Under the pieces are notes generated by a model. It worked only from the letters and a program-made list of their open reading frames with translations. It ran no database searches and had not been told where the DNA came from. Both the position numbers and the translations under genes were made by a program. From a virus, in IMG/VR virus record IMGVR_UViG_3300038443_001768: DNA of 64,000 bases. One strand, given 5' to 3'. Positions 15,745-42,408 of the stretch are shown one piece after another. How positions within the stretch are numbered: the stretch's first letter is position 1; every line of letters begins with the position of its first letter.

Positions 15745-15819
15745 TGGTAGCCCCACCGGGGATTGAACCCGGTCTAAGAGTGTGAAAGACTCTCGTGCTG
15801 ACCATTACACCATGGGGCC
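15745..15819 (-). tRNA. tRNA-Glu(TTC), only tRNA with encoded CCA
   Basis: Cloverleaf, loop CT TTC AC. Confidence 0.9.
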
Positions 15820-15827
15820 GTGAAGGG

Positions 15828-15906
15828 TAGCGGAGGTAGGATTCGAACCGTTTATGACGACCTCCTGGTTATGAGCCAGGCGAGCTTCCAACTGCTCTAC
15901 TCCGCG
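15828..15906 (-). tRNA. tRNA-Met(CAT), initiator-like, with insertion in T stem
   Basis: 5' CGCGG, C1:U72 mismatch, loop CT CAT AA. Confidence 0.8.
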
Positions 15907-15912
15907 TGATAG

Positions 15913-15985
15913 TAGGCCGTGCGGGATTCGAACCCGCGTTCTTCACTGTGAGAGAGTGACGAGATAACCGCTACTCCAACGGCCC
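15913..15985 (-). tRNA. tRNA-Glu(CTC)
   Basis: Cloverleaf, loop CT CTC AC. Confidence 0.9.
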
Positions 15986-16005
15986 AAGCTTTGACAAGTG
16001 TAGCA

Positions 16006-16078
16006 CGCCCCCGGCAGGATTCGAACCCGCGACCAGCCGGGTAGAAACCGGCCGCTCTGTCCACTGAGCTACAAGGGC
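16006..16078 (-). tRNA. tRNA-Arg(TCT)
   Basis: Cloverleaf, loop TT TCT AC. Confidence 0.9.
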
Positions 16079-16082
16079 AAGA

Positions 16083-16155
16083 TCGCGGCGAGGGGACTCG
16101 AACCCCATTCGGGCGCTCCTTATGAGGGAGTCCGGGTCAACCGATCCGCGCCGCA
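16083..16155 (-). tRNA. tRNA-Met/Ile2(CAT), atypical
   Basis: T arm and loop CT CAT AA; short D arm. Confidence 0.7.
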
Positions 16156-16158
16156 TTA

Positions 16159-16230
16159 TGTCCCCGGCTGGATTCGAACCAGCGACCTACCGCTTAGGAG
16201 GCGGTCGCGCTTCCGCTGCGCCACGAGGAC
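16159..16230 (-). tRNA. tRNA-Arg(CCT)
   Basis: Cloverleaf, loop CT CCT AA. Confidence 0.9.
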
Positions 16231-16235
16231 TCAAG

Positions 16236-16306
16236 CGGGGCACCTGGGATTCGAACCCAGAAGGCGCGGTTTTGGAGACCGGCCGGCACAACCTACGCTG
16301 TACCCC
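16236..16306 (-). tRNA. tRNA-Trp(CCA)
   Basis: Cloverleaf, loop CT CCA AA, G73. Confidence 0.85.
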
Positions 16307-16396
16307 ATGTACTGGCTGCTTACTTCCGGATCGTGGTCCGGTGTCGGCACTTAGCGGACTCTCCACGTCCACGACAGGAGAACACGGCCAAGTGAG

Positions 16397-16469
16397 GGTG
16401 ACCGATCAGATTCGAACTGACGCCGTCTTGGTTCACAACCAAGAGTGCTACCGCTACACCACGGTCACC
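16397..16469 (-). tRNA. tRNA-His(GTG)
   Basis: Loop TT GTG AA; encoded G-1 and C73. Confidence 0.9.
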
Positions 16470-16474
16470 GAGAG

Positions 16475-16547
16475 CGCCCTTGGCTGGACTCGAACCAGCG
16501 ACCCCCAGCTTCGCAAGCTGGTGCTCTATCCACTGAGCTACAAGGAC
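16475..16547 (-). tRNA. tRNA-Arg(GCG)
   Basis: Loop TT GCG AA in canonical cloverleaf. Confidence 0.9.
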
Positions 16548-16553
16548 TTGGAG

Positions 16554-16627
16554 CGGAAGTGACGGGATTCGAACCCGCGGTCTCGTCCGTGACAGGGACG
16601 CGGGGACGGCCTCTCCCCTACACCTCC
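16554..16627 (-). tRNA. tRNA-Asp(GTC)
   Basis: Loop CT GTC AC, G73. Confidence 0.9.
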
Positions 16628-16639
16628 AAGTTACTTCAG

Positions 16640-16712
16640 CGTCCCTGGCAGGATTTGAACCCGCGACCCCCTGGTTCGAAGCCAGGTGCTCTATCCACTG
16701 AGCTACAGAGAC
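16640..16712 (-). tRNA. tRNA-Arg(TCG)
   Basis: Loop CT TCG AA. Confidence 0.9.
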
Positions 16713-16716
16713 TAAG

Positions 16717-16801
16717 TGCGCGAGGTGGGACTCGAACCCACACGACCCTAAGGCCAACCGGGTTTGAGCCGGTCGTGTCTACCAATTCCTACCACTCACG
16801 C
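16717..16801 (-). tRNA. tRNA-Leu(CAA)
   Basis: Long variable arm, loop CT CAA AC. Confidence 0.9.
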
Positions 16802-16812
16802 GAAGACTGCTA

Positions 16813-16896
16813 TGACATCGAGGGGATTCGAACCCCTATGACCTCTCGGCCGGCAGGGTCTAAGCCTGCTGCGTATACCAATTCCACCACGATGCC
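16813..16896 (-). tRNA. tRNA-Leu(TAG)
   Basis: Long variable arm, loop CT TAG AC. Confidence 0.9.
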
Positions 16897-16900
16897 GGAG

Positions 16901-16984
16901 TGCGCTGAACAGGACTCGAACCTGCACGGGTTTTACCCCACAAGGCTCTCAACCTTGCGTGTCTACCAATTCCACCACCAACGC
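16901..16984 (-). tRNA. tRNA-Leu(GAG)
   Basis: Long variable arm, loop TT GAG AG. Confidence 0.9.
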
Positions 16985-17106
16985 GAAATCCCATCAGAGG
17001 CCAGGGCGTCGATGGGAAGGACTACCTTGACCGCCCTCCGCCCAAGCGGCGAAGAATTCGCGTGCTGCCACACGCTTGCCCTCGGTGGCAGCCGAGGGGC
17101 GATCTC
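16985..17106 (-). ncRNA. Unknown 122-nt multi-hairpin RNA with kissing loops
   Basis: Closing stem GAGATC/GATTTC, five hairpins, complementary loops CTGCCA/TGGCAG; fills the Pro-Leu spacer. Confidence 0.6.
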
Positions 17107-17112
17107 AGTGAG

Positions 17113-17184
17113 TCGGGGACGCGGGAGTCGAACCCGCCACCACTCCGTTCCAAGCGGAGGATGCAACCGCTACACCTGACCCCG
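17113..17184 (-). tRNA. tRNA-Pro(TGG)
   Basis: C1:G72, loop CT TGG AA. Confidence 0.9.
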
Positions 17185-17187
17185 TAG

Positions 17188-17260
17188 TGGTCGATGCAGG
17201 TCTCGAACCTGCGACCTCATGCGTGTCGAGCATGCGCTCTACCAACTGAGCTAATCGACC
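17188..17260 (-). tRNA. tRNA-Val(GAC)
   Basis: Loop TC GAC AC (C33 instead of U33). Confidence 0.85.
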
Positions 17261-17274
17261 AAGGTACTACTAAG

Positions 17275-17347
17275 CTCCGCCGCCAGGATTCGAACCCGGA
17301 ACTCTCGGGTAACAACCGAGCACGTTCTCCGTTTACGCCACAGCGGA
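17275..17347 (-). tRNA. tRNA-Asn(GTT)
   Basis: Loop TT GTT AC, G73. Confidence 0.9.
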
Positions 17348-17352
17348 TCGTA

Positions 17353-17425
17353 TTGCAGGCCTAGGATTCGAACCCAGACTTCACGGCTTCAGAGGCCGGC
17401 GGGCTGCCAGTTACACCAGCCTGCA
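17353..17425 (-). tRNA. tRNA-Gln(CTG)
   Basis: U1:A72, loop CT CTG AA. Confidence 0.9.
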
Positions 17426-17429
17426 TTGA

Positions 17430-17501
17430 ATGCGGGACTCGGGTTCGAACCGAGCCGATGAGCTTCAAAGGCTCACGTGCTGCCAGCTACACCATCCCGC
17501 A
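17430..17501 (-). tRNA. tRNA-Gln(TTG)
   Basis: U1:A72, loop CT TTG AA. Confidence 0.9.
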
Positions 17502-18708: not shown

Positions 18709-18768
18709 GCCGCTAGTATGGCAGCTTCGGGCGTTGCAGTCCAGAGGACGACGTGGTACGCTCCCTCA

Positions 18769-20190
18769 ATGACCAACGTACGCGCGGCGGACGCCCTGAT
18801 GGCGGATATCTTCGGAAAGGACGCGTATCGCGTCGGCGGCAGCGTGCGTGACGAAGTTCTCGGCCGCCACATCAAGGACGCCGACTATGTCGTTCAGCAC
18901 CACACGCTGGACGCGATCAAGCGAAAGCTTCGTCGCGGCTTCGAGCATCGCGGTCAGGTCGCGATCACGAAGCTCGAACTCCGTACCGGACAACACGCCG
19001 GATGGCGCGTCGGCGCGCCTTGGAACATCGAGATCATGATGCCGCGAGGCGAGCAGAAGGTCGAGACCGACGAGGGTAACGAGCGGCACAAGTTCATCAT
19101 CACGCTCGACCCCGACATGCCTCTGGAGGTCGACGCTCTGCGGCGCGACTTCACAATGAACGCCCTGTATCGAAACGTCGTCACCGGAGAGATTGACGAC
19201 CCTCTGGGCGGCGTCGCGGCGATCGAGGACGGTGAGGTCACGACGACGGATGCGTCGTCGTTCCGCGACGACCCTCTGCGCACGCTGCGCGCTCTGCGCT
19301 TCGTGTCGCAACTTGGCTTCGATCTCGACGACGACACGTATGGACAGATGTTCGTGCACGCGAAGTCTGTCGATGGGCTCACCGACAAGGGTGTCTCTGG
19401 AACTGCGTTCGACGAACTCTGCAAGATCCTGATGGGCCGACACGTCGCGAAGGCGCTGCGGCTCGCGAGGGATTCACGGGTTCTGGAGTCGCTGCTGCCG
19501 GAGCTTGCTCCGATGCTGGGTCACGACCCGCAGAACTCGCACCATGCGTTCTCAACCGACGAGCACACCTTCGTCGCCCTCGACGTTGCGGCCGGCTTCG
19601 GGCTGCCGCTGAGGGTGCGTCTCGCGCTGCTCTTCCACGACGCGGGCAAGCCGCTCGTCGAGTGGGTCGGAAAGGACGGCATGAAGCACTACTTCGAATC
19701 CAAGGATCAGCCAGGATCGATCGATCACCAGGAGGCGTCGGCGGAGTTGTGGCTCGCCGTCGCGGACCGCCTGAACGTACCGCGTTCACTGCGGCGCGAT
19801 GTCGAGACGTTGATCCGGCGTCACATGGTACCGCTGACGCTACGTCTGAAGCCGGCGAAGGTCCGCAAGTGGCGATGCGAGCTTGGCGACGACCTGCTCG
19901 CAGACCTGCTGCGGCACCGGCTCTGCGATGTCATGGCCAAGGGCGTCATCGACTACGAGGCCATGCGCGCAGTGAATCGCATGGAGGAGATCCGCGAGGA
20001 CGCCGTCCGCGACGGGGTGCCTGTGACGGTTCGCGACCTCCCCGTCTCGGGCGGAGACATCGCCGCTATGGGCGTCAGCGGCCCTCGGATCGGTGAGATT
20101 CAGCGGCAGCTTCTCCACGAGGCGGTTTCGCAGCCCTCCAACAACACACGAGACCGCATGTACATGCGGGCGCTGAAGCTGGCTGCGTGA
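18769..20190 (+). CDS. cca: CCA-adding tRNA nucleotidyltransferase (class II) with HD domain
   Basis: VGGSVRDEVLG..KDADYV, DALRRDFTMNAL, FRDDPLRTLRALRF, LLFHDAGKP; TACGCT box 6 nt before ATG. Confidence 0.92.
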   Translation: MTNVRAADALMADIFGKDAYRVGGSVRDEVLGRHIKDADYVVQHHTLDAIKRKLRRGFEHRGQVAITKLELRTGQHAGWRVGAPWNIEIMMPRGEQKVETDEGNERHKFIITLDPDMPLEVDALRRDFTMNALYRNVVTGEIDDPLGGVAAIEDGEVTTTDASSFRDDPLRTLRALRFVSQLGFDLDDDTYGQMFVHAKSVDGLTDKGVSGTAFDELCKILMGRHVAKALRLARDSRVLESLLPELAPMLGHDPQNSHHAFSTDEHTFVALDVAAGFGLPLRVRLALLFHDAGKPLVEWVGKDGMKHYFESKDQPGSIDHQEASAELWLAVADRLNVPRSLRRDVETLIRRHMVPLTLRLKPAKVRKWRCELGDDLLADLLRHRLCDVMAKGVIDYEAMRAVNRMEEIREDAVRDGVPVTVRDLPVSGGDIAAMGVSGPRIGEIQRQLLHEAVSQPSNNTRDRMYMRALKLAA

Positions 20191-23051: not shown

Positions 23052-23136
23052 CGGAGAGACAGGGATTCGAACCCTGGAAGGTGTGACCCTTACGCGCTTT
23101 CCAGGCGCGCCCATTCGGCCTCTCTGGCACCTCTCC
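23052..23136 (-). tRNA. tRNA-Ser(GGA)
   Basis: Long variable arm, loop CT GGA AA. Confidence 0.9.
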
Positions 23137-23139
23137 TGA

Positions 23140-23211
23140 AGTCGCGGAGCGGAATCGAACCGCTGTAAACGGGGTTGCAGCCCGTTGCCTAAGCCACTCG
23201 GCCACCGCGAC
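23140..23211 (-). tRNA. tRNA-Cys(GCA)
   Basis: U73, loop CT GCA AC. Confidence 0.9.
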
Positions 23212-23215
23212 GGAG

Positions 23216-23302
23216 CGGAGAGACAGGGATTCGAACCCTGGAGGCTTTGACACCTACTCGGCTAGCAACCGAGCGCATTCGGCCGGACTCTGCCACCTCT
23301 CC
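23216..23302 (-). tRNA. tRNA-Ser(GCT)
   Basis: Long variable arm, loop TT GCT AG. Confidence 0.9.
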
Positions 23303-23342
23303 TGGCACCCGATCGCGGCCACGTGGACGGCGTCGGGCTGAG

Positions 23343-23426
23343 CGGAAGCAGAGGGATTCGAACCCCCGACGGTGGTTAGCCGCAGCCGCTTTCAAGGCGG
23401 TGTCCTCGACCAGCCGGACTACTTCC
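23343..23426 (-). tRNA. tRNA-Ser(TGA)
   Basis: Long variable arm, loop CT TGA AA. Confidence 0.9.
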
Positions 23427-23431
23427 GTGAG

Positions 23432-23518
23432 CGGATGGTAGAGGATTCGAACCTCTGAGGGTGTTACCCCTACTCGCTTTCGAGGCGAGCGCATTCAACC
23501 AGGCTCTGCCAACCATCC
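23432..23518 (-). tRNA. tRNA-Ser(CGA)
   Basis: Long variable arm, loop CT CGA AA. Confidence 0.9.
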
Positions 23519-23522
23519 GAAA

Positions 23523-23604
23523 TGACGCGCCAAGGACTCGAACCTTGAATGCCGTGAGGCGGCCGGGTTACAGCCGGCTGGGTGCTCCCGCTCCCACACG
23601 CGCC
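23523..23604 (-). tRNA. tRNA-Tyr(GTA)
   Basis: Long variable arm, loop CT GTA AC. Confidence 0.9.
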
Positions 23605-23613
23605 GAGACAGTC

Positions 23614-23636
23614 AACTGTAGCAGATCTACGCGACA
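23614..23636 (-). promoter_or_regulatory. Promoter of tRNA operon 2
   Basis: TGTC-N9-TGCTACAGTT. Confidence 0.7.
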
Positions 23637-24157
23637 AGCGAGCAGACGCCTGTGTCTGGCTCTACGACCTCGATCTCAAAGGTGTTCAGATGCGGAGTCG
23701 CGCGAGCCTCTGCCTCCTCGCGGGCCACGCGCGCCGCTACCTGCTCGGCCGTCTCAGGAATCGGCCAGTTGCCGTTCTCGTCCTTGAGAGCGGTTAGGTC
23801 TTCGCCCAACTGCTCCAACATGAAGAACAATAGCGGTGTATGCGCCTTCTTCTGATTGCAGTCGAAACATGAGCCTGATCGATTTGTCCACGAGCCCTTT
23901 GATCCACCTAGCGCCTTCGGCTGGACGTGGTCAACGGTAGTTCCGCGCAGGCACGCGCAGTATGCACATGGGTCGCGACGGATGATGTGGTCCCAAACGG
24001 CGCGAGATGCGTGCGGCCGGCGCAGTAGGCCGCCAAGACGCGCTCCGGATGGGACGCGAGCGTGGATTAGCTCGTCACCGCACGCAGGGCAAGACTTACC
24101 GCGGAGTTCCGCAGTGAAGCCGGCCTTGCACGAGGAGCACCAGATTAGCTGTGCCAC
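23627..24157 (-). CDS. HNH endonuclease with N-terminal Zn ribbon
   Basis: CAYC...TVDHVQP...GG...N...CFDCNQKK. Confidence 0.85.
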   Translation of the reverse strand: MAQLIWCSSCKAGFTAELRGKSCPACGDELIHARVPSGARLGGLLRRPHASRAVWDHIIRRDPCAYCACLRGTTVDHVQPKALGGSKGSWTNRSGSCFDCNQKKAHTPLLFFMLEQLGEDLTALKDENGNWPIPETAEQVAARVAREEAEARATPHLNTFEIEVVEPDTGVCSLVA

Positions 24158-28567: not shown

Positions 28568-29551
28568 TTAGCTCCTAGTCAGCGTGAAGGTGATCGTGAT
28601 GGCGTCGCCAGACGTGGTCAGCGTTGCCGTGGACGAGAGGTTCTTCTCGTATCCAAGGGTTCCAGACGACGACGCGTTGAGCGCTCCGAACTTAGCGATC
28701 GTCACAGGTAGGGAGTCTGAGCCATTGGCTGTCCACGTCGCGGTCAGCGTCGCGGTCGACGTGCCCGTCGTGTGCGCGTACGTCATCTGCTTACGCAGAA
28801 GGCCGCCACCGGCGGTGGTGATCTCGCTCGGCAGGGTCGTGTTCGCGGCCGACTCGGCGGCTGTTGAGGCGGAAAGCGCGCCGTAGTTGAAGGACGCGGG
28901 CTGGGCCGATGTCGATAGATGCTGGCCGAAGAATGCGTCCTGACCTGCGTTGGTCATCAACAGCCGCGCGTTGGCGTAGTCGACGTCAAACAAGGTGTCC
29001 CATTCGCGCGCACGGTAGCCGCGGAAGGACAAGCCGATCTCGTCACCGAAGGCGGCTGAGTACGGCCGATCGTCGCCGCCGTTGTTGAACAGCGGGTCGT
29101 CGTATGGGTGGACGCTCGGGCCGGCCCAATCGGACGGACGTCCGACCGAGCAGCCGAAGTATGCGGCTACGGCGGCGGCCAACGCAGGGTCATCAGACTC
29201 TACCCAATCAGCAGGATCGTCTGAGTGCGACTCCCACCAGGAGTCGCGGATGTCTTCGAGGTGCAGGAAGTACGGACGATGCTCGTTGCTCAGCGCGGCA
29301 AGGCGCTCTCGGCGCTCGCGCGAATCACGACCGCGGCCCTCTCCGGATGCGATGAGGGCGATGCTGGGGCTGTTTGGCTCACGAGCAAACTCGAAGCGCG
29401 TTAGCTGCTTGTCCTCATGTACGTCGCCATCGGAGGTCTTGGCGGACGAGTTTCCTAGAAGTACGACGGCTGACATGTCTCTGTTTCTTGTTCCTGGAAT
29501 CGACCCATTTTGCGGCGAATGTCTCATCAACAGTACCCGACGGTTCGCCAT
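28568..29551 (-). CDS. Putative structural protein with Thr/Ser-rich C-terminal domain (start uncertain)
   Basis: Beta-rich C-terminus (GALNASSSGTL...GDAITITFT); co-oriented with tail-type genes. Confidence 0.55.
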   Translation of the reverse strand: MANRRVLLMRHSPQNGSIPGTRNRDMSAVVLLGNSSAKTSDGDVHEDKQLTRFEFAREPNSPSIALIASGEGRGRDSRERRERLAALSNEHRPYFLHLEDIRDSWWESHSDDPADWVESDDPALAAAVAAYFGCSVGRPSDWAGPSVHPYDDPLFNNGGDDRPYSAAFGDEIGLSFRGYRAREWDTLFDVDYANARLLMTNAGQDAFFGQHLSTSAQPASFNYGALSASTAAESAANTTLPSEITTAGGGLLRKQMTYAHTTGTSTATLTATWTANGSDSLPVTIAKFGALNASSSGTLGYEKNLSSTATLTTSGDAITITFTLTRS

Positions 29552-29581
29552 CAACGGCTCTGGATGTGGTACGCTTCCTGG

Positions 29582-30070
29582 ATGCGTCCAGTCATGTACA
29601 TCGTCGCCAACGAGGGGCTCGGCATGTCGCCAGGCAAGCTCGCTGCCCAGGCCGCCCATGCCGCCGTAGAGGCCTACCGGCTATCGTGTCCGATCCCGGT
29701 ATGGCACCCAGACCAAGACAAGCTGCGCTTCGAAGGACGCGAGGTCGTGCAGGAGTGGTACAAGGGCGGCCACTACACGAAGATCGTCCTCGGCGCTCGC
29801 GACTCTCAACACCTGTTGACGCTGGAGCGCTACATCAAGGAGCGTGGATTCAAGACCGCGTTGATCATCGATGAGGGTCGGACAGAGATCGAGCCACACT
29901 CGCCGACAGCGATCGGCGTCGAGATCGTCGACAAGGACGACGAGCACACATGGGCAACGTTTGGGTCGATCAAGCTCTTCGGGCAGGCCAGCGGTCCGCC
30001 CAAGCGAGTCGACTACGACGCCGCGACTGTGAGCCGCTACGGAAAGTTCTTCAACGCGCTCAAGAGCTAG
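29582..30070 (+). CDS. pth2: Peptidyl-tRNA hydrolase, Pth2 type
   Basis: MYIV...LGMSPGKLAAQAAHAAV, KIVL, IIDEGRTEI.P.S.TAIG motifs. Confidence 0.9.
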   Translation: MRPVMYIVANEGLGMSPGKLAAQAAHAAVEAYRLSCPIPVWHPDQDKLRFEGREVVQEWYKGGHYTKIVLGARDSQHLLTLERYIKERGFKTALIIDEGRTEIEPHSPTAIGVEIVDKDDEHTWATFGSIKLFGQASGPPKRVDYDAATVSRYGKFFNALKS

Positions 30071-30239: not shown

Positions 30240-30313
30240 TGGAGCCGGCTGGATTTGAACCAGCGACCTCACGGGCTTCAACCGTCCGCTCTACCGGGCT
30301 GAGCTACGACTCC
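30240..30313 (-). tRNA. tRNA-Phe(GAA)
   Basis: Loop TT GAA GC (G37). Confidence 0.85.
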
Positions 30314-30390
30314 GAGCCCCGGGCTCGCACCGGGAACCATCAGGCTCGTAGTACCTGACCTTTGGACGCCCTTGGCGTCGGTGCATTGAG

Positions 30391-30462
30391 AGCAGGCGAC
30401 GGGGCTCGAACCCGCTCTTGAGGCTTGGAAGGCCGCCGTGCAACCGGTAACACTTCACCTGC
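30391..30462 (-). tRNA. tRNA-Gly(TCC)
   Basis: U73, loop CT TCC AA. Confidence 0.85.
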
Positions 30463-30466
30463 TTGA

Positions 30467-30538
30467 AGCTCCCGCAGAGACTTGAACTCTACCATCTCGG
30501 GTACGAACCGAGCGCAACGCCATCTTTGCTTCGGGAGC
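30467..30538 (-). tRNA. tRNA-Thr(CGT)
   Basis: Loop TT CGT AC. Confidence 0.85.
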
Positions 30539-30540
30539 GA

Positions 30541-30672
30541 ACAGGCCGGCGCTCTACCGTTGAGCTACAAGCGGGCGAACCATCAAGGAGCGACCTCGAA
30601 GTAATCCGACTCGACGTGCACGTCGAGAAGGGTTGCCGCCAGGGCGGATTCGAACCACCAACCTCCGGCCGT
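30541..30672 (-). ncRNA. Circularly permuted tRNA mimic (YrlA/Y-RNA-like topology)
   Basis: Order: terminal stem, T arm GGTGG TTCGAAT CCGCC, closed extended acceptor stem, D arm TAGCTCAACGGTAGAGC, terminal stem. Confidence 0.75.
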
Positions 30673-30674
30673 AA

Positions 30675-30748
30675 AGCCGACTGTGGGACTCGAACCCACG
30701 ACATTCGTCTTACAAGGACGACGCTCTAGCCATCTGAGCTAAGTCGGC
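30675..30748 (-). tRNA. tRNA-Thr(TGT)
   Basis: Loop CT TGT AA. Confidence 0.9.
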
Positions 30749-30751
30749 GGA

Positions 30752-30823
30752 AGCTGCGACCGAGAATTGAACCCGGGACTCGACCGTACCAAGGTCGCGT
30801 GTTACCACTAGCACCATCGCAGC
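30752..30823 (-). tRNA. tRNA-Thr(GGT)
   Basis: Loop TT GGT AC. Confidence 0.9.
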
Positions 30824-30827
30824 GAAG

Positions 30828-30901
30828 TGGTGCCGACAGGAATCGAACCTGCGTTCTTCGGGGTAAAAGCCCGCTGCAAGGCCAACGTTTGCTACGACAC
30901 C
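30828..30901 (-). tRNA. tRNA-Lys(TTT)
   Basis: Loop CT TTT AC. Confidence 0.9.
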
Positions 30902-30904
30902 GTA

Positions 30905-30979
30905 TGCCCCGGGCAGGAATCGAACCTGCGTGCCAGTGGGTAAGAGCCACTTTCTAAAGCCAGCTTTTGTTACCGAGGC
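30905..30979 (-). tRNA. tRNA-Lys(CTT)
   Basis: Loop CT CTT AC; degenerate D arm. Confidence 0.8.
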
Positions 30980-30984
30980 GAGGA

Positions 30985-31057
30985 AGTGGAAGACGGGACT
31001 CGAACCCGCGGCCTTCTCCATGGCAAGGAGACGCTCTACCAACTGAGCTACATCCAC
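30985..31057 (-). tRNA. tRNA-Gly(GCC)
   Basis: U73, loop TT GCC AT. Confidence 0.9.
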
Positions 31058-31062
31058 GAAAG

Positions 31063-31136
31063 TTGGCCCTCTGGGACTCGAACCCAGGACCTCCCGCGTA
31101 TCAGACGGACGCTCTAACCAACTGAGCTAAGGACCA
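31063..31136 (-). tRNA. tRNA-Ile(GAT)
   Basis: Loop CT GAT AC. Confidence 0.9.
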
Positions 31137-31142
31137 TTGAAG

Positions 31143-31214
31143 TGCTCGATGTAGGATTCGAACCTACGACCCCACGCTTGTAAGGCGCGTGCTCTCCCGC
31201 TGAGCTAATCGAGC
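31143..31214 (-). tRNA. tRNA-Val(TAC)
   Basis: Loop CT TAC AA. Confidence 0.9.
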
Positions 31215-31218
31215 GAAG

Positions 31219-31291
31219 TGGAGGATACGGGACTTGAACCCGTGACTTCCAGCATGCCATGCTGGCGCTCTCCCAACTGAGCTAATCCCCC
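31219..31291 (-). tRNA. tRNA-Ala(GGC)
   Basis: G3:U70, loop AT GGC AT. Confidence 0.9.
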
Positions 31292-31357
31292 ATGGCTGGT
31301 TGATAACGGTGACTAGCTCACCGAGTCCGGAGTTAGGGCCTCCGGACTAGGAACCCA

Positions 31358-31431
31358 TGGACCAGGAGGGATTCGAACCCTCAACCCTCTGCGTGCAAAG
31401 CAGGCGCTCTACCAATTGGAGCTACAAGCCC
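31358..31431 (-). tRNA. tRNA-Ala(TGC)
   Basis: G3:U70, loop TT TGC AC. Confidence 0.9.
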
Positions 31432-34560: not shown

Positions 34561-35043
34561 CTACTCTACCGGCGGTCGTGCCTCCTTGGACGCGGCGCGA
34601 GCCGAGTTCTCAGACGACGTCTTCGACTTGTGGCACTTCGTGCAAAGAAGCTGAAGATTGTCGAGTTCGAAACCGCCGCCATCGATGAGCGGAACTACGT
34701 GGTCGACTTCGAGCTTCCCTCCCCAGGGCTCTCCATCGACAAGATCAAACGGGTGATGGCGGCATCCTTGGCAGTGATTTCCGTCGCGCTGGATGAGCAG
34801 TCGGCGCGCTGTGCGGGGGTCGTAGTAGGCCCTCCAGTCGAGTACGCAGTTGGGTTCATCGTCGCGCCCGTCGTGCCAGTTTCGCTGGCGTCCTGTTGGG
34901 CCGTCTTCGACGCGCTCACCACAGAAGCGACAACGTCCAAGCTCAGCATCGTAGTGCGGCAGTCTGGCCTTGCGGTGCGCAGGTCGTGACGCATTTGCTC
35001 CACGATTAGGCTTGCGACGTCGTCCTCGTCTACCAGAGGACAA
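34561..35043 (-). CDS. HNH endonuclease
   Basis: RDGNHCQGC...LEVDHVVPLIDGG...NLQLLCTKCHKSKT. Confidence 0.9.
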   Translation of the reverse strand: MSSGRRGRRRKPNRGANASRPAHRKARLPHYDAELGRCRFCGERVEDGPTGRQRNWHDGRDDEPNCVLDWRAYYDPRTARRLLIQRDGNHCQGCRHHPFDLVDGEPWGGKLEVDHVVPLIDGGGFELDNLQLLCTKCHKSKTSSENSARAASKEARPPVE

Positions 35044-39042: not shown

Positions 39043-39567
39043 CTAGCAGTCGCCGCTCTTTCTGGCGGCGGCCATCGCCGAGGCCAACGACGGCGCACGG
39101 CGAGGCAGGGCGTGAATCCCGTACGGGAGCGGGACCTTCCTCGACAGTGCCGCTTCGAAGAAGTTCTCCATCCGCCGGTCGTAGTCGGCCTTCAGATTCC
39201 GATACGTGGACTTGTAGGCCAGCACGGGGTCCTCGACCAGGGTCGGTGAGTCCGCGTCAGACGCTGCGTCCTTGGCGTTACATGCCGTTGCCGCCGCCTG
39301 CTTCATGTCCTCCCAGTCTCTGAGGATTGCGTCGGTCTGCTCTCTCACGTGCGGCATCTGGGTGTTCTTGTGCGCTTCGTGCACGTACTGCCCGCCGTCG
39401 TGGAGGGCCGTCGAGAGCAGTGTCGCCGCGCCCAACAGGACCACGACGCCGACGATCCATGCCACGGGATGCCGCGTGAATGAGGTGCCGGCCTTGGCGG
39501 CGCTCTTCGCGGCCCGATCGGCGCGGTCTTCCCAGATCTCGCCGTTGCTGCGGTCGTCGTGATTCAC
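39043..39567 (-). CDS. Single-pass membrane protein
   Basis: Hydrophobic helix VAWIVGVVVLLGAATLL; coupled to lipoprotein gene. Confidence 0.7.
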   Translation of the reverse strand: MNHDDRSNGEIWEDRADRAAKSAAKAGTSFTRHPVAWIVGVVVLLGAATLLSTALHDGGQYVHEAHKNTQMPHVREQTDAILRDWEDMKQAAATACNAKDAASDADSPTLVEDPVLAYKSTYRNLKADYDRRMENFFEAALSRKVPLPYGIHALPRRAPSLASAMAAARKSGDC

Positions 39568-40208
39568 TTCTGGTCTCCGATCGCGTTTTCGATGATGCGC
39601 TGTGCCAGCGCCGGCTTGCCTGCCTTGAGCGCCGCTTGAGCAGCCGTGTCTGCCCGCCCGAGATTAGCGTCGACGGTAAGCGAGATCTTCGTGGACTTGC
39701 GCTGGAACTGCGTCGGCTTGTTCGAGCAGTACGTTTCCAGGTTGAAGAAGTCTACGTACGCGCCGCCCGGCGTGAACCCGTACCGGTACTGCGGCGGGTT
39801 CGGGTGGTAGAGGCCGTCGACTGAGCGCTTCGGGATCACCGAGGCGTCCGAGTAACTGCCAGGATGATCATCGAGAACCCCCTCAGGGGCGAAGTACGAG
39901 GTGCTAGAACTTGTCAGCTTGCCCGTCACCGGCACCGTTACCAGCGGCGACGACGGGTTGTTGAAGCTGAACGTGCACCAGAGGATGTTGGACGGGTCGT
40001 CGTAGATCTCTTGCGCGTGGTTGTAGTTCTTGAACTCGACGTCGTTCTTCGGCAGGTAGGGCGCGCGACGCGAGGCCTTCTTGGCGACCTGCTTGTAAAT
40101 CTCAGCCTGGCTCGGCGGATGCGGCTTGCTCTGCTCGCCCCCGCCGCAACCGGTGGCGGCGAGGCCTCCGAACACCAGCACGGTCAGCATGATGATGATC
40201 TTGCGCAT
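39564..40208 (-). CDS. Lipoprotein (paralog B)
   Basis: Signal peptide with lipobox-like ATGC; clear similarity to 40457-41101. Confidence 0.75.
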   Translation of the reverse strand: MRKIIIMLTVLVFGGLAATGCGGGEQSKPHPPSQAEIYKQVAKKASRRAPYLPKNDVEFKNYNHAQEIYDDPSNILWCTFSFNNPSSPLVTVPVTGKLTSSSTSYFAPEGVLDDHPGSYSDASVIPKRSVDGLYHPNPPQYRYGFTPGGAYVDFFNLETYCSNKPTQFQRKSTKISLTVDANLGRADTAAQAALKAGKPALAQRIIENAIGDQK

Positions 40209-40456: not shown

Positions 40457-41101
40457 CTACTTATCCGAATCGAGAGCGTTGAGAGCACGCTGCGCGCCGG
40501 CTCGGTCGCCCCGCGCGAGTGCGGCCTCCGCGGCCTGATCGGCGGCCTTGGCCTGTTCATCAACCGTGACGGCGACCTTGGTGGTCTGGCGCTGGAAGCG
40601 CGTCAGTGCGGTCGTGCACAGGGTGGGCATGTTGAAGAAGTCCACGTACTGGCCGCCAGGAGTGAAGCCGTAGCGATACGGCGGCGGCGAGCCGTGATAC
40701 ATACCGTCGACGGATCGCCGCTCGGGCGTGTACTCGGGATGATCGATGTTGTGATCGCCACGCCACGCTCGCGTGGATGGGAAGAACGAGACACTCGACG
40801 AGGTCAGCTTGCCGGCGATCGGAATCGTCACAAGCGGCGAAGACGCGTTGCCCCACGTGGTGGTGCACCAGACGATCGTGTTGGGGTTCGCGTACAGCCG
40901 CTGAGCGGCCGTGTAGTTCTTGAACTCAGGAGACGGCCATGCCGGAACAAATGGCCGAGTCGAGTTCGAGCGGCCGTCGATCTGCGAGAGGATGTCTCCG
41001 GCGCTGTCTGCGCCAGCGACGGCAAGTGAGCCGCCGCAACCTGCTACGGCCAGCACTAGGGCAGCGCCCCAGGCCGGTCCGATCTTGCGTAGGATCTTCA
41101 A
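40457..41101 (-). CDS. Lipoprotein (paralog A)
   Basis: Lipobox VAGC; AAGGAG RBS; shares SSPLVT.P..GKLTSSS and YRYGFTPGG.YVDFFN with paralog B. Confidence 0.75.
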   Translation of the reverse strand: MKILRKIGPAWGAALVLAVAGCGGSLAVAGADSAGDILSQIDGRSNSTRPFVPAWPSPEFKNYTAAQRLYANPNTIVWCTTTWGNASSPLVTIPIAGKLTSSSVSFFPSTRAWRGDHNIDHPEYTPERRSVDGMYHGSPPPYRYGFTPGGQYVDFFNMPTLCTTALTRFQRQTTKVAVTVDEQAKAADQAAEAALARGDRAGAQRALNALDSDK

Positions 41102-41133: not shown

Positions 41134-41162
41134 ACTGTAGCCGGTCCGCATCGGCGTGTCAA
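41134..41162 (-). promoter_or_regulatory. Primary-sigma-type promoter of lipoprotein operon
   Basis: TTGACA-17 nt-TACAGT. Confidence 0.7.
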
Positions 41163-41176
41163 GCGTGAAAAGCTTT

Positions 41177-41471
41177 GCTAGCCTCGATAGCCGGGGTTCT
41201 GTTCCGCTGACGCGGCGCTGACCATCCATCTACGCCTCGCGGCGTCCGTCATCTCTCAACGTGACGGTTCTCTCACCATGACCTCCTCCGGGTGTCCTCA
41301 GGAGGTCGAACTTGAGATCTCATCCAGGCCTCGGCGAACTGCTGGCTTATTAGGCTTTGCTCTCGTGGTCCAAGCGGCCAAAGACCTCCCACCGGCCGTT
41401 TACGTCGAGTTAGCCCCGACGTGGATGCCCCGAACTTCCTCTACGTCTCCGCAGCGGCCAGCCCGGCTAGC
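41177..41471 (-). ncRNA. rnpB: RNase P RNA (compact, ~295 nt)
   Basis: P1 GCTAGCC/GGCTAGC, P2 GCTGGCC/GGTCAGC, P3, GAGGAAGTTCGGGG pairing with AACAGAACCCCGGCTA (P4 with bulged U), AGATGGATG after GNRA-capped P18, GGT in L15-like loop. Confidence 0.88.
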
Positions 41472-41918
41472 CCTGTGACTCTAGCAGATATCGAATCTCG
41501 TTCAAGGCTCTGATCGCGTCTACTTCGGGCGCTCCGCCTTCAGGCGAGTCTGCGCCTGCGATGCGCATCAGCGACATCACCGCGCAGACTAGCGTGGCGT
41601 CCTCGAACTTCAGTAGTTCCTTGGATGGCGCGGCTTCGTAGACTTCATCGACCGAGAAGCGTGTGAACATTACGGTGAGTTCGACTCCAACGGGTATAGC
41701 GCCTGGAAGGCTTCGATGTTGAGCGAGAAGCCATAGTTTATGACCTCGTCGCCCACACGCTGAAGCACAACCGTACCAACACCAGGAACGACGATGTCGA
41801 TGTCCTGCTCGGTTCGTCCGTCTCCATAGTCGCGAGGCTCGTGATAATCGATCTCGGCGTCGACCTGTTTAGTGTCAACAGGCCGCGCGGACACGAAGCT
41901 CACGTTCCAGAGTTGCAA
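41467..41918 (-). CDS. Two small hypothetical genes (41467-41670, 41670-41918)
   Basis: Coupled ORFs; last stop codon overlaps the RNase P 5' stem. Confidence 0.55.
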
Positions 41919-42408
41919 GGCCGATCAATAGCTTGGCGTTGTCGGCTTCGTCGATGGTCTTGCGTAGGTCACGTAGTTCGATCCCGTAGCTACGGACGTC
42001 CTCCTCGACGTCATACTCAACACCCTCAGCCTTCGATAGATCAGTCGCCAGGTAGAGGTGCGTGAACTCGTCGGTGATGCCCTCGGAGGTGTAGAAACCG
42101 GCCGCGTAGTACCACCGCTTCGCGGTCAGGCAGAACTCTTCGGCAAGCTCGCGCATCGCCGCCTCAAGATGATCCTCGCCTGGGTCGATCTTGCCTGCAC
42201 ACAACGAGACAACGCGCCGGCCAGTGACCTCGCGCGGCTGCTCGCCGACGTAGAAGAACTCGTCATCAAAGGGCAGCACGGCGACAACATCGCCAGGCGC
42301 GGCCCATTCCCGCTCGACCGTGGTTCCGTCCTCGCGCTGGAAGACACCCCACTTGACCGAGAACCGCCGGCCCTCGTAGTGTGTCTTCTCAAGAAGCTTC
42401 TTGATCAT
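41875..42408 (-). CDS. NUDIX hydrolase (ADP-ribose pyrophosphatase-like)
   Basis: Nudix box GKIDPGEDHLEAAMRELAEE; YTSEGITDE..HLYLA. Confidence 0.88.
   Translation of the reverse strand: MIKKLLEKTHYEGRRFSVKWGVFQREDGTTVEREWAAPGDVVAVLPFDDEFFYVGEQPREVTGRRVVSLCAGKIDPGEDHLEAAMRELAEEFCLTAKRWYYAAGFYTSEGITDEFTHLYLATDLSKAEGVEYDVEEDVRSYGIELRDLRKTIDEADNAKLLIGLATLERELRVRAAC

Follow-up and report, generated by a model that had tools for sequence, protein, structure and literature searches.

A phage RNase P RNA gene with a bacterial-type catalytic domain and a reduced, rebuilt specificity domain

RNase P RNA counts as a housekeeping ribozyme of cells, and a candidate copy in viral DNA raises the question of whether the gene is genuine and, if so, what it would do for a phage. 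The locus lies in a 64,000-nucleotide stretch of the IMG/VR virus record IMGVR_UViG_3300038443_001768 (the window), which is identified as phage DNA by its capsid, prohead protease and portal genes. An initial annotation, made without database searches, had placed the core of an RNase P RNA of ~295 nt on the minus strand of an intergenic gap, and it recommended a covariance-model scan and a search for covariation in related phages. Both have come out in favor of the claim, and P1 bounds the RNA exactly at 295 nt. In a permissive cmscan of the window, RF00010 matches 41171-41473(-) with 27.1 bits (E 1.6e-6), and the alignment covers both ends of the RNA and skips over the middle of the specificity domain (S-domain). 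As the gathering score is set at 100 bits, a scan at that threshold misses the gene, and such a scan of the whole window gave tRNAs only and no RNase P match. A sequence-only profile of nine relatives, from which the window RNA and its near-twin were left out, finds the RNA with 75.7 bits (E 3e-22) as its sole match in the window; canonical host rnpB scores 18.6 bits against the same profile. Since the folding energy is unremarkable (z -1.7, not significant by itself), the case stands on homology and covariation. Specifically, helices P4, P5, and P15 are 98-100% paired in the nine relatives, with changes on both sides, compared with 35-52% in slid controls, and the changes that separate the window RNA from its closest relative and from an RNA-seq contig preserve its helices. 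The identity of the RNase P RNA gene is confirmed. It should be noted that the minimum free energy fold of the RNA does not reproduce the helix model, that blastn against GenBank phages found no homologue, and that a hairpin picked by eye (CGGCC/GGCCG) was discarded because a change in the closest relative breaks it.

The RNA is best explained as a bacterial-type phage RNase P RNA in which the catalytic domain is intact and the specificity domain has been reduced and rebuilt (Table 1). P1, P2, P3, P4, P5, P15 with its GGU, P16, a GNRA-capped P18, and P19 are all present, as are the J3/4, J18/2, and J19/4 motifs, and CR-I, CR-IV, and CR-V stand together with P1, P2, and P3 as expected of an RNase P RNA. 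The GGT that had been seen in an L15-like loop is where it was proposed to be, although L15 is atypical of the family on its 5' side, and P18 does carry a GCGA loop (GCAA in the closest relative). P4 is a pseudoknot of eight pairs with a bulged U, as had been described, but the bulge is the second U rather than the first: across the relatives the position of the first U forms U.G, C-G, or G-C pairs, which puts P4 in the ordinary 3+5 register. The second U does not vary, but it also formed part of the search patterns. The additional helix that lies between P15 and P18, where class B RNAs have P15.1, was overlooked in the initial annotation.

Table 1. Positions of the RNase P RNA gene, its structural elements, and related features in the window.
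Feature	Position	Strand	Remark
tRNA array 1, 18 genes	15745..17501	-	putative substrates
tRNA nucleotidyltransferase, CCA-adding-like	18718..20190	+	putative 3'-end partner
tRNA array 2, 6 genes	23052..23604	-	putative substrates
tRNA array 3, 12 genes	30240..31431	-	putative substrates
sigma70-type promoter-like site, 10/12	41134..41162	-	consensus match only; just 3' of RNA
RNase P RNA gene	41177..41471	-	295 nt; ends set by 7-bp P1
P1, 7 bp	41471-41465 with 41183-41177	-	helix model
P2	41462-41456 with 41223-41217	-	same layout in relatives
P3 hairpin	41454-41441	-	same layout in relatives
P4 5' strand, bulged U 41433 (U69 equivalent), J3/4 before	41428..41436	-	
6-bp P5 (41427-41422 with 41326-41321) enclosing remodelled S-domain	41321..41427	-	
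P8-like hairpin, GCUAA loop, directly after P5	41421-41403	-	helix name tentative
Family-conserved stem/internal-loop module, after a 4-bp stem	41392-41365	-	helix names tentative
J5/15, AGA; G41319 at place of conserved A248	41318..41320	-	
P15	41317-41314 with 41274-41271	-	covaries
P15-L15-P16 region, P16 of 8 bp	41271..41317	-	
L15 GGU, RCCA-pairing site	41277-41275	-	helix model
Extra helix between P15 and P18, class B P15.1 place	41246..41267	-	present in subfamily
P18, GCGA loop, and J18/2 (CR-IV)	41223..41244	-	
P19 hairpin	41204..41215	-	
J19/4 (CR-V) and P4 3' strand (41196-41189)	41189..41203	-	
67-aa ORF, function unassigned; TAG overlaps P1	41467..41670	-	
82-aa ORF upstream of 67-aa ORF	41670-41918	-	
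NUDIX gene	41875-42408	-	

The initial annotation had also described a truncated specificity domain without a second T-loop or P13/P14, and this holds: neither the interdigitated T-loop pair nor P13/P14 nor P6 was found in the window RNA. Instead of the elbow-reading T-loops of CR-II/CR-III it has a different conserved module, made up of a covarying 4-bp stem, GAG on the 5' side, a hairpin that varies between members, and a 3' strand of 7 nt, which a strict pattern recovers in 17/58 family members with seven variants of the stem. The P8-like hairpin is present, as is the P18 GNRA loop, which in class A RNAs docks on P8, and a weak distal hairpin closes the layout. A reading of the module itself as a T-loop is tentative, its apparent invariance being partly owed to the search pattern and broken by new members. 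The proposal that GAGAGCAAA is a specificity-domain (CR-II) remnant is unsupported, since only its GAG is conserved in the nearest relatives and the CCAC before it forms one side of a helix that covaries. As for P6, the pseudoknot with L17, neither a linker behind P5 nor a partner that covaries was seen on inspection of the subfamily, whereas P6 is apparently present in other family members. In the subfamily of L005, L096, L132, and L135, the loop of the post-P5 hairpin appears, by inspection, to offer a P6 strand that matches the changes in L17. The RNase P RNAs of L241 and L260 carry a tRNA-like stretch with T-arm sequence inside an S-domain insert.

How does the RNA compare with the known classes? 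The best clan match is class A, not class B. With class A (rnpB, E. coli M1 RNA, RF00010) it shares P1-P5, P15, P16, P18, and P19, the bulged U of P4 in the same register, J3/4, J18/2, J19/4, and the L15 GGU. It differs from class A in being phage-borne and 295 nt long, in the exchange of three P4 pairs, in having G at position 248, in the absence of P6, the interdigitated T-loops, P13, and P14, and in the presence of the new S-domain module and the extra helix before P18. It falls outside class A on score, T-loops, P6, and A248, and class B is excluded. Class B RNAs (RF00011) have no P6 and carry a P15.1 helix between P15 and P18, and to that extent the window RNA resembles them, but it retains P16, its post-P5 hairpin loop is of the P8 type rather than L5.1, and from the class B set of P5.1, P10.1, P15.1, L5.1-L15.1, and no P16 it has only the P15.1-like helix. 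Reduced RNase P RNAs are known in CPR bacteria, Thermoproteaceae, and Mycoplasma fermentans (PMC8172020). They too have lost S-domain helices and score below covariance-model cut-offs, but there the RNA is the sole cellular enzyme and here it is an extra viral copy, with a P4 signature that, in the size range scanned in GTDB, matched only a provirus.

The window RNA is a member of a large phage family, a point that the initial annotation had missed. Gapped P4 patterns searched against IMG/VR gave 123 distinct matches, 86 of which pair P4 at 7/8 or more positions, and tRNA genes adjoin 77/86 of these loci compared with 2/37 of those without a pairing P4. About 3 of the 86 loci are cellular or chance matches and were excluded from later counts. 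The one P4 pair that the pattern leaves free is paired in 77/78 tRNA-bearing loci versus 24/44 tRNA-free loci, and in the former it is G-C in 42, A-U in 24, C-G in 8, U-A in 2, and U.G in 1. A scan with a single 15-mer, by comparison, returned mostly chance matches and was dropped. The family cores span 170-380 nt, and their S-domains range from canonical to almost none. The family is larger than counted, as the pattern scans missed an RNase P RNA at L357:18174-18413 (-) that has a strongly altered P4 with two further pairs exchanged and the first pair mismatched. The RNase P RNA pattern was absent from five capsid- or lipoprotein-related contigs, mostly fragments, and no RNase P RNA was found in G003. 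In two subfamily members, tmRNA-like matches (L236:4702-4784, L303:1235-1302) directly adjoin the RNase P RNA at its 5' end.

A scan of GTDB for cores of ~220-280 nt, a size range that left out full-length cellular RNAs, gave one match, in a provirus of Candidatus Solirubrobacter pratensis. The provirus RNA falls in the subclade of the window RNA, which makes a Thermoleophilia host for the window phage a reasonable inference. The same bacterium also has a canonical rnpB (246.6 bits, A248) and rnpA. A separate cellular gene beside the proviral copy argues against the window RNA being a decaying fragment of host rnpB or a chance match, as one might suppose from a score of 27 bits and the unremarkable folding energy. 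Together with the family-wide covariation and the helices that are kept despite sequence change, it leaves such an origin largely refuted and, in our view, extremely improbable.

What, then, might the RNA act upon? A 139.5-kb IMG/VR virus, rated 99% complete, shares the gene order of the window at 76-93% identity and carries the same RNA at the corresponding position. The initial suggestion that the phage carries a reduced ribozyme is supported by the structural genes in the window and by the conservation of the RNA with compensatory changes. The window also encodes class II ribonucleotide reductase, ThyX, a tRNA nucleotidyltransferase, Pth2, and 36 tRNA genes in three arrays, in which 23/35 spacers are 8 nt or shorter; the nearest tRNA gene is ~10 kb from the RNase P RNA. 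Because CCA is not encoded in 35/36 of the tRNA genes, the CCA-adding-like enzyme is a candidate partner at the 3' end, and related CCA-less phages also tend to have a CCA-adding enzyme. In G011 and G012, the CCA-adding domain lies inside open frames of 1560 and 1165 aa, which suggests fusions or inteins. The Pth2-type peptidyl-tRNA hydrolase (29510-30070 (+), PF01981, E 3e-23) adjoins tRNA array 3 and is part of the tRNA toolkit of the phage.

The genes that lead into the RNA are, in order, NUDIX, the 82-aa ORF, and the 67-aa ORF. A stop codon does overlap P1, as had been reported, but its owner is the 67-aa ORF, the second one downstream of NUDIX. The reading frames run right up to the RNA and no promoter was found in a scan upstream of it, which makes co-transcription with the upstream genes plausible. 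The sigma70-like site faces a 214-aa lipoprotein-like gene (40457-41101). This gene and that at 39564-40208 (both on the minus strand) are a paralogous pair with no Pfam or PHROG match and with relatives in proviruses (L128, L129). In a rhizosphere metatranscriptome, a single 229-nt contig (41217-41445, 6 differences, depth 4.7) sits wholly inside the RNase P gene, with nothing else over 12 kb. The missing cover elsewhere carries no weight as evidence, and the contig gives a weak indication that a close relative makes a discrete transcript.

RnpA binds P2/P3, J18/2, P4, and P15 of RNase P RNA, and all of these are retained in the window RNA. RnpA (PF00825) was not found in 10 phage contigs, several near complete and the 139.5-kb relative among them, so that of the two partners first envisaged, host RnpA or a phage protein, host RnpA is the likelier. 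Nor did HARP appear above cut-off in 5 contigs (one 11-bit fragment lies below). Nevertheless, the S-domain is rebuilt, many small unannotated ORFs surround the gene, and a divergent small protein can escape profile searches, all of which would fit an active ribozyme that needs no protein or that relies on an unrecognized phage protein in place of RnpA or of the lost specificity domain. We consider this unlikely, given the retained RnpA-binding elements, the lack of a PF00825 candidate in the 10 contigs, and the fact that no common neighbor protein was noticed in the loci inspected, their flanks often being tRNA or tmRNA genes.

The putative substrates bear a mark that may be tied to the RNA itself. 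At the place of the conserved A248 the window RNA has G41319, a change that the initial annotation overlooked, and its J5/15 reads AGA where most relatives have CAA or UAA. In the E. coli enzyme, A248 is in contact with nucleotide -1 of the substrate, which is usually U, and it is disputed whether the contact is one of pairing or of stacking (PMC10465520, PMC10731613); kinetic work disputes Watson-Crick pairing, and E. coli RPR with G248 is still an efficient catalyst (PMC10465520). The window tRNAs have C at -1 in 18 cases, A in 12, and U in 5. Among 58 dereplicated phages, the share of U(-1) is 0-0.26 in those with G248 (n=6) and 0.36-1.0 in those with A248 (n=52), without overlap, and the pooled counts are C76/U26 of 157 versus C98/U504 of 733. 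The difference holds against the seven CCA-less A248 phages (p 0.001, kinship uncorrected), and the shift in U is specific to -1, as G248 phages have 34-48% U at -5 to -3 and 17% at -1. On a tree with position 248 masked there are four label changes, which we read as three gains and one reversion (L212, an intermediate with A248, yet 52% C(-1)). All four sister contrasts are in the predicted direction (one-sided sign test 1/16), with the qualification that independent contrasts number only about four and one rests on n=4 tRNAs. In an out-of-sample check on ten loci found through relatives of the CCA enzyme, six have an RNase P RNA, all with G248, and their tRNAs have C98, A58, and U15 of 171 at -1. 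These six probably belong to one clade, that of the window, and hence they confirm the G248 state and add no new origins. The data suggest that the G248 enzyme and the phage tRNA leaders evolved together, the leaders of the G248 clade having shifted away from U(-1), with C now the main nucleotide at this position and A the next. A direct G248-C(-1) contact would be our inference, and the large share of A(-1) means that the preference is not one of strict pairing. Avoidance of C(-1) in G73 tRNAs is not established (p 0.06 in the window, 0.25 pooled). An association of J18/2 position 331 with N(-2) was set aside, as its nominal p of 0.02 is clade-driven and counter-examples exist; the clade of L208, L224, L162, L228, and L306-L308 has G-rich N(-2) leaders, not cleanly linked to the J18/2 sequence.

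It could be argued that C(-1) reflects ancestry or host-like composition, and that an active RNase P works mainly on host pre-tRNAs, tmRNA, and polycistronic mRNAs. The gene does lie outside the tRNA arrays in the window, the independent contrasts are few, and the tRNAs of Candidatus S. pratensis have C(-1) in 23/44. However, in this proxy host C(-1) equals the leader background of 57% and U is not depleted, in contrast to the fall of U to 17% in G248 phages, so composition does not explain the phage shift, and the GC-rich A248 phage G012 still has U(-1) in 28/42. We therefore see little chance that the phage tRNAs are not the main targets.

We propose that the window RNA is a predicted active ribozyme that forms a complex with host RnpA and cleaves the tandem phage tRNA transcripts at +1, and we think this probable. 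In this mechanism the RNA would be transcribed, probably, from the upstream operon and P1 pairing would close it on itself. Host RnpA would then be bound, catalytic Mg2+ would be held at P4, and the polycistronic phage tRNA transcripts would be cut at each +1, while the 3' ends would be trimmed by host enzymes and given CCA by the phage enzyme. What the data show is the identity, core fold, and conservation of the RNA, its association with tRNA arrays, the 248/N(-1) correlation, and the lack of a recognizable RnpA of phage origin, whereas catalysis, protein partner, transcript, and substrates are predicted. The E. coli C-domain is active without the S-domain, less efficiently and aided by P6 (PMC5839562), and the absence of the T-loops and P6 and a score far below the Rfam cut-off weigh against activity, as do the atypical 5' side of L15 and the ~10 kb that separate the gene from the nearest tRNA gene. 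If the loss of the elbow-reading module and P6 had left a weak or dead mimic, it might tie up host RnpA or pre-tRNAs and thereby interfere with tRNA maturation in the host, and the only earlier viral RNase P-like RNA, that of camelpox, is indeed inactive and has been discussed as a decoy (PMC3001073). The camelpox RNA is likewise virus-encoded with a proposed resemblance to RNase P RNA, but the likeness is a loose structural one, whereas the window RNA has the full core, covariation, and cognate tRNA arrays. A mimic would have no reason to keep P15 and its GGU, or for position 248 to follow the phage's own tRNA leaders, and the 36 phage tRNAs need RNase P activity; we accordingly regard a mimic as improbable.

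Beyond the active ribozyme with host RnpA, we put forward, as a tentative idea that is rather less probable than otherwise, that this phage clade has privately tuned its tRNA processing, through a minimal RNase P RNA in which a new module binds the elbow and G248 reads C(-1), such that phage arrays would be matured preferentially by the phage enzyme with host RnpA. If true, the disputed 248/N(-1) contact would have its first compensatory pair from nature. Searches of the literature, including papers on huge phages and on viral structured RNAs and with subscription journals thinly covered, found no published phage RNase P RNA, and the sole viral precedent found was the camelpox RNA. Yet the RNase P RNA family is common in tRNA-rich phages, its members scoring below annotation thresholds. 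It amounts to a deletion series made by nature, running from complete class A S-domains to 170-nt cores, which tests the need for the S-domain, and its natural G248 enzymes, with C(-1)-rich and U(-1)-poor substrates, make the dispute over A248 pairing or stacking testable (PMC10465520, PMC10731613).

Two further observations concern the tRNA genes of the window. Two tRNAs with CAT anticodons, at 15826-15906 and 16083-16155 (-), have odd bodies, one with an insertion before the T arm and the other missed by Rfam at the gathering score. HNH endonuclease genes are found at 23627-24157 and 34561-35043 (-), one of them directly upstream of tRNA array 2.
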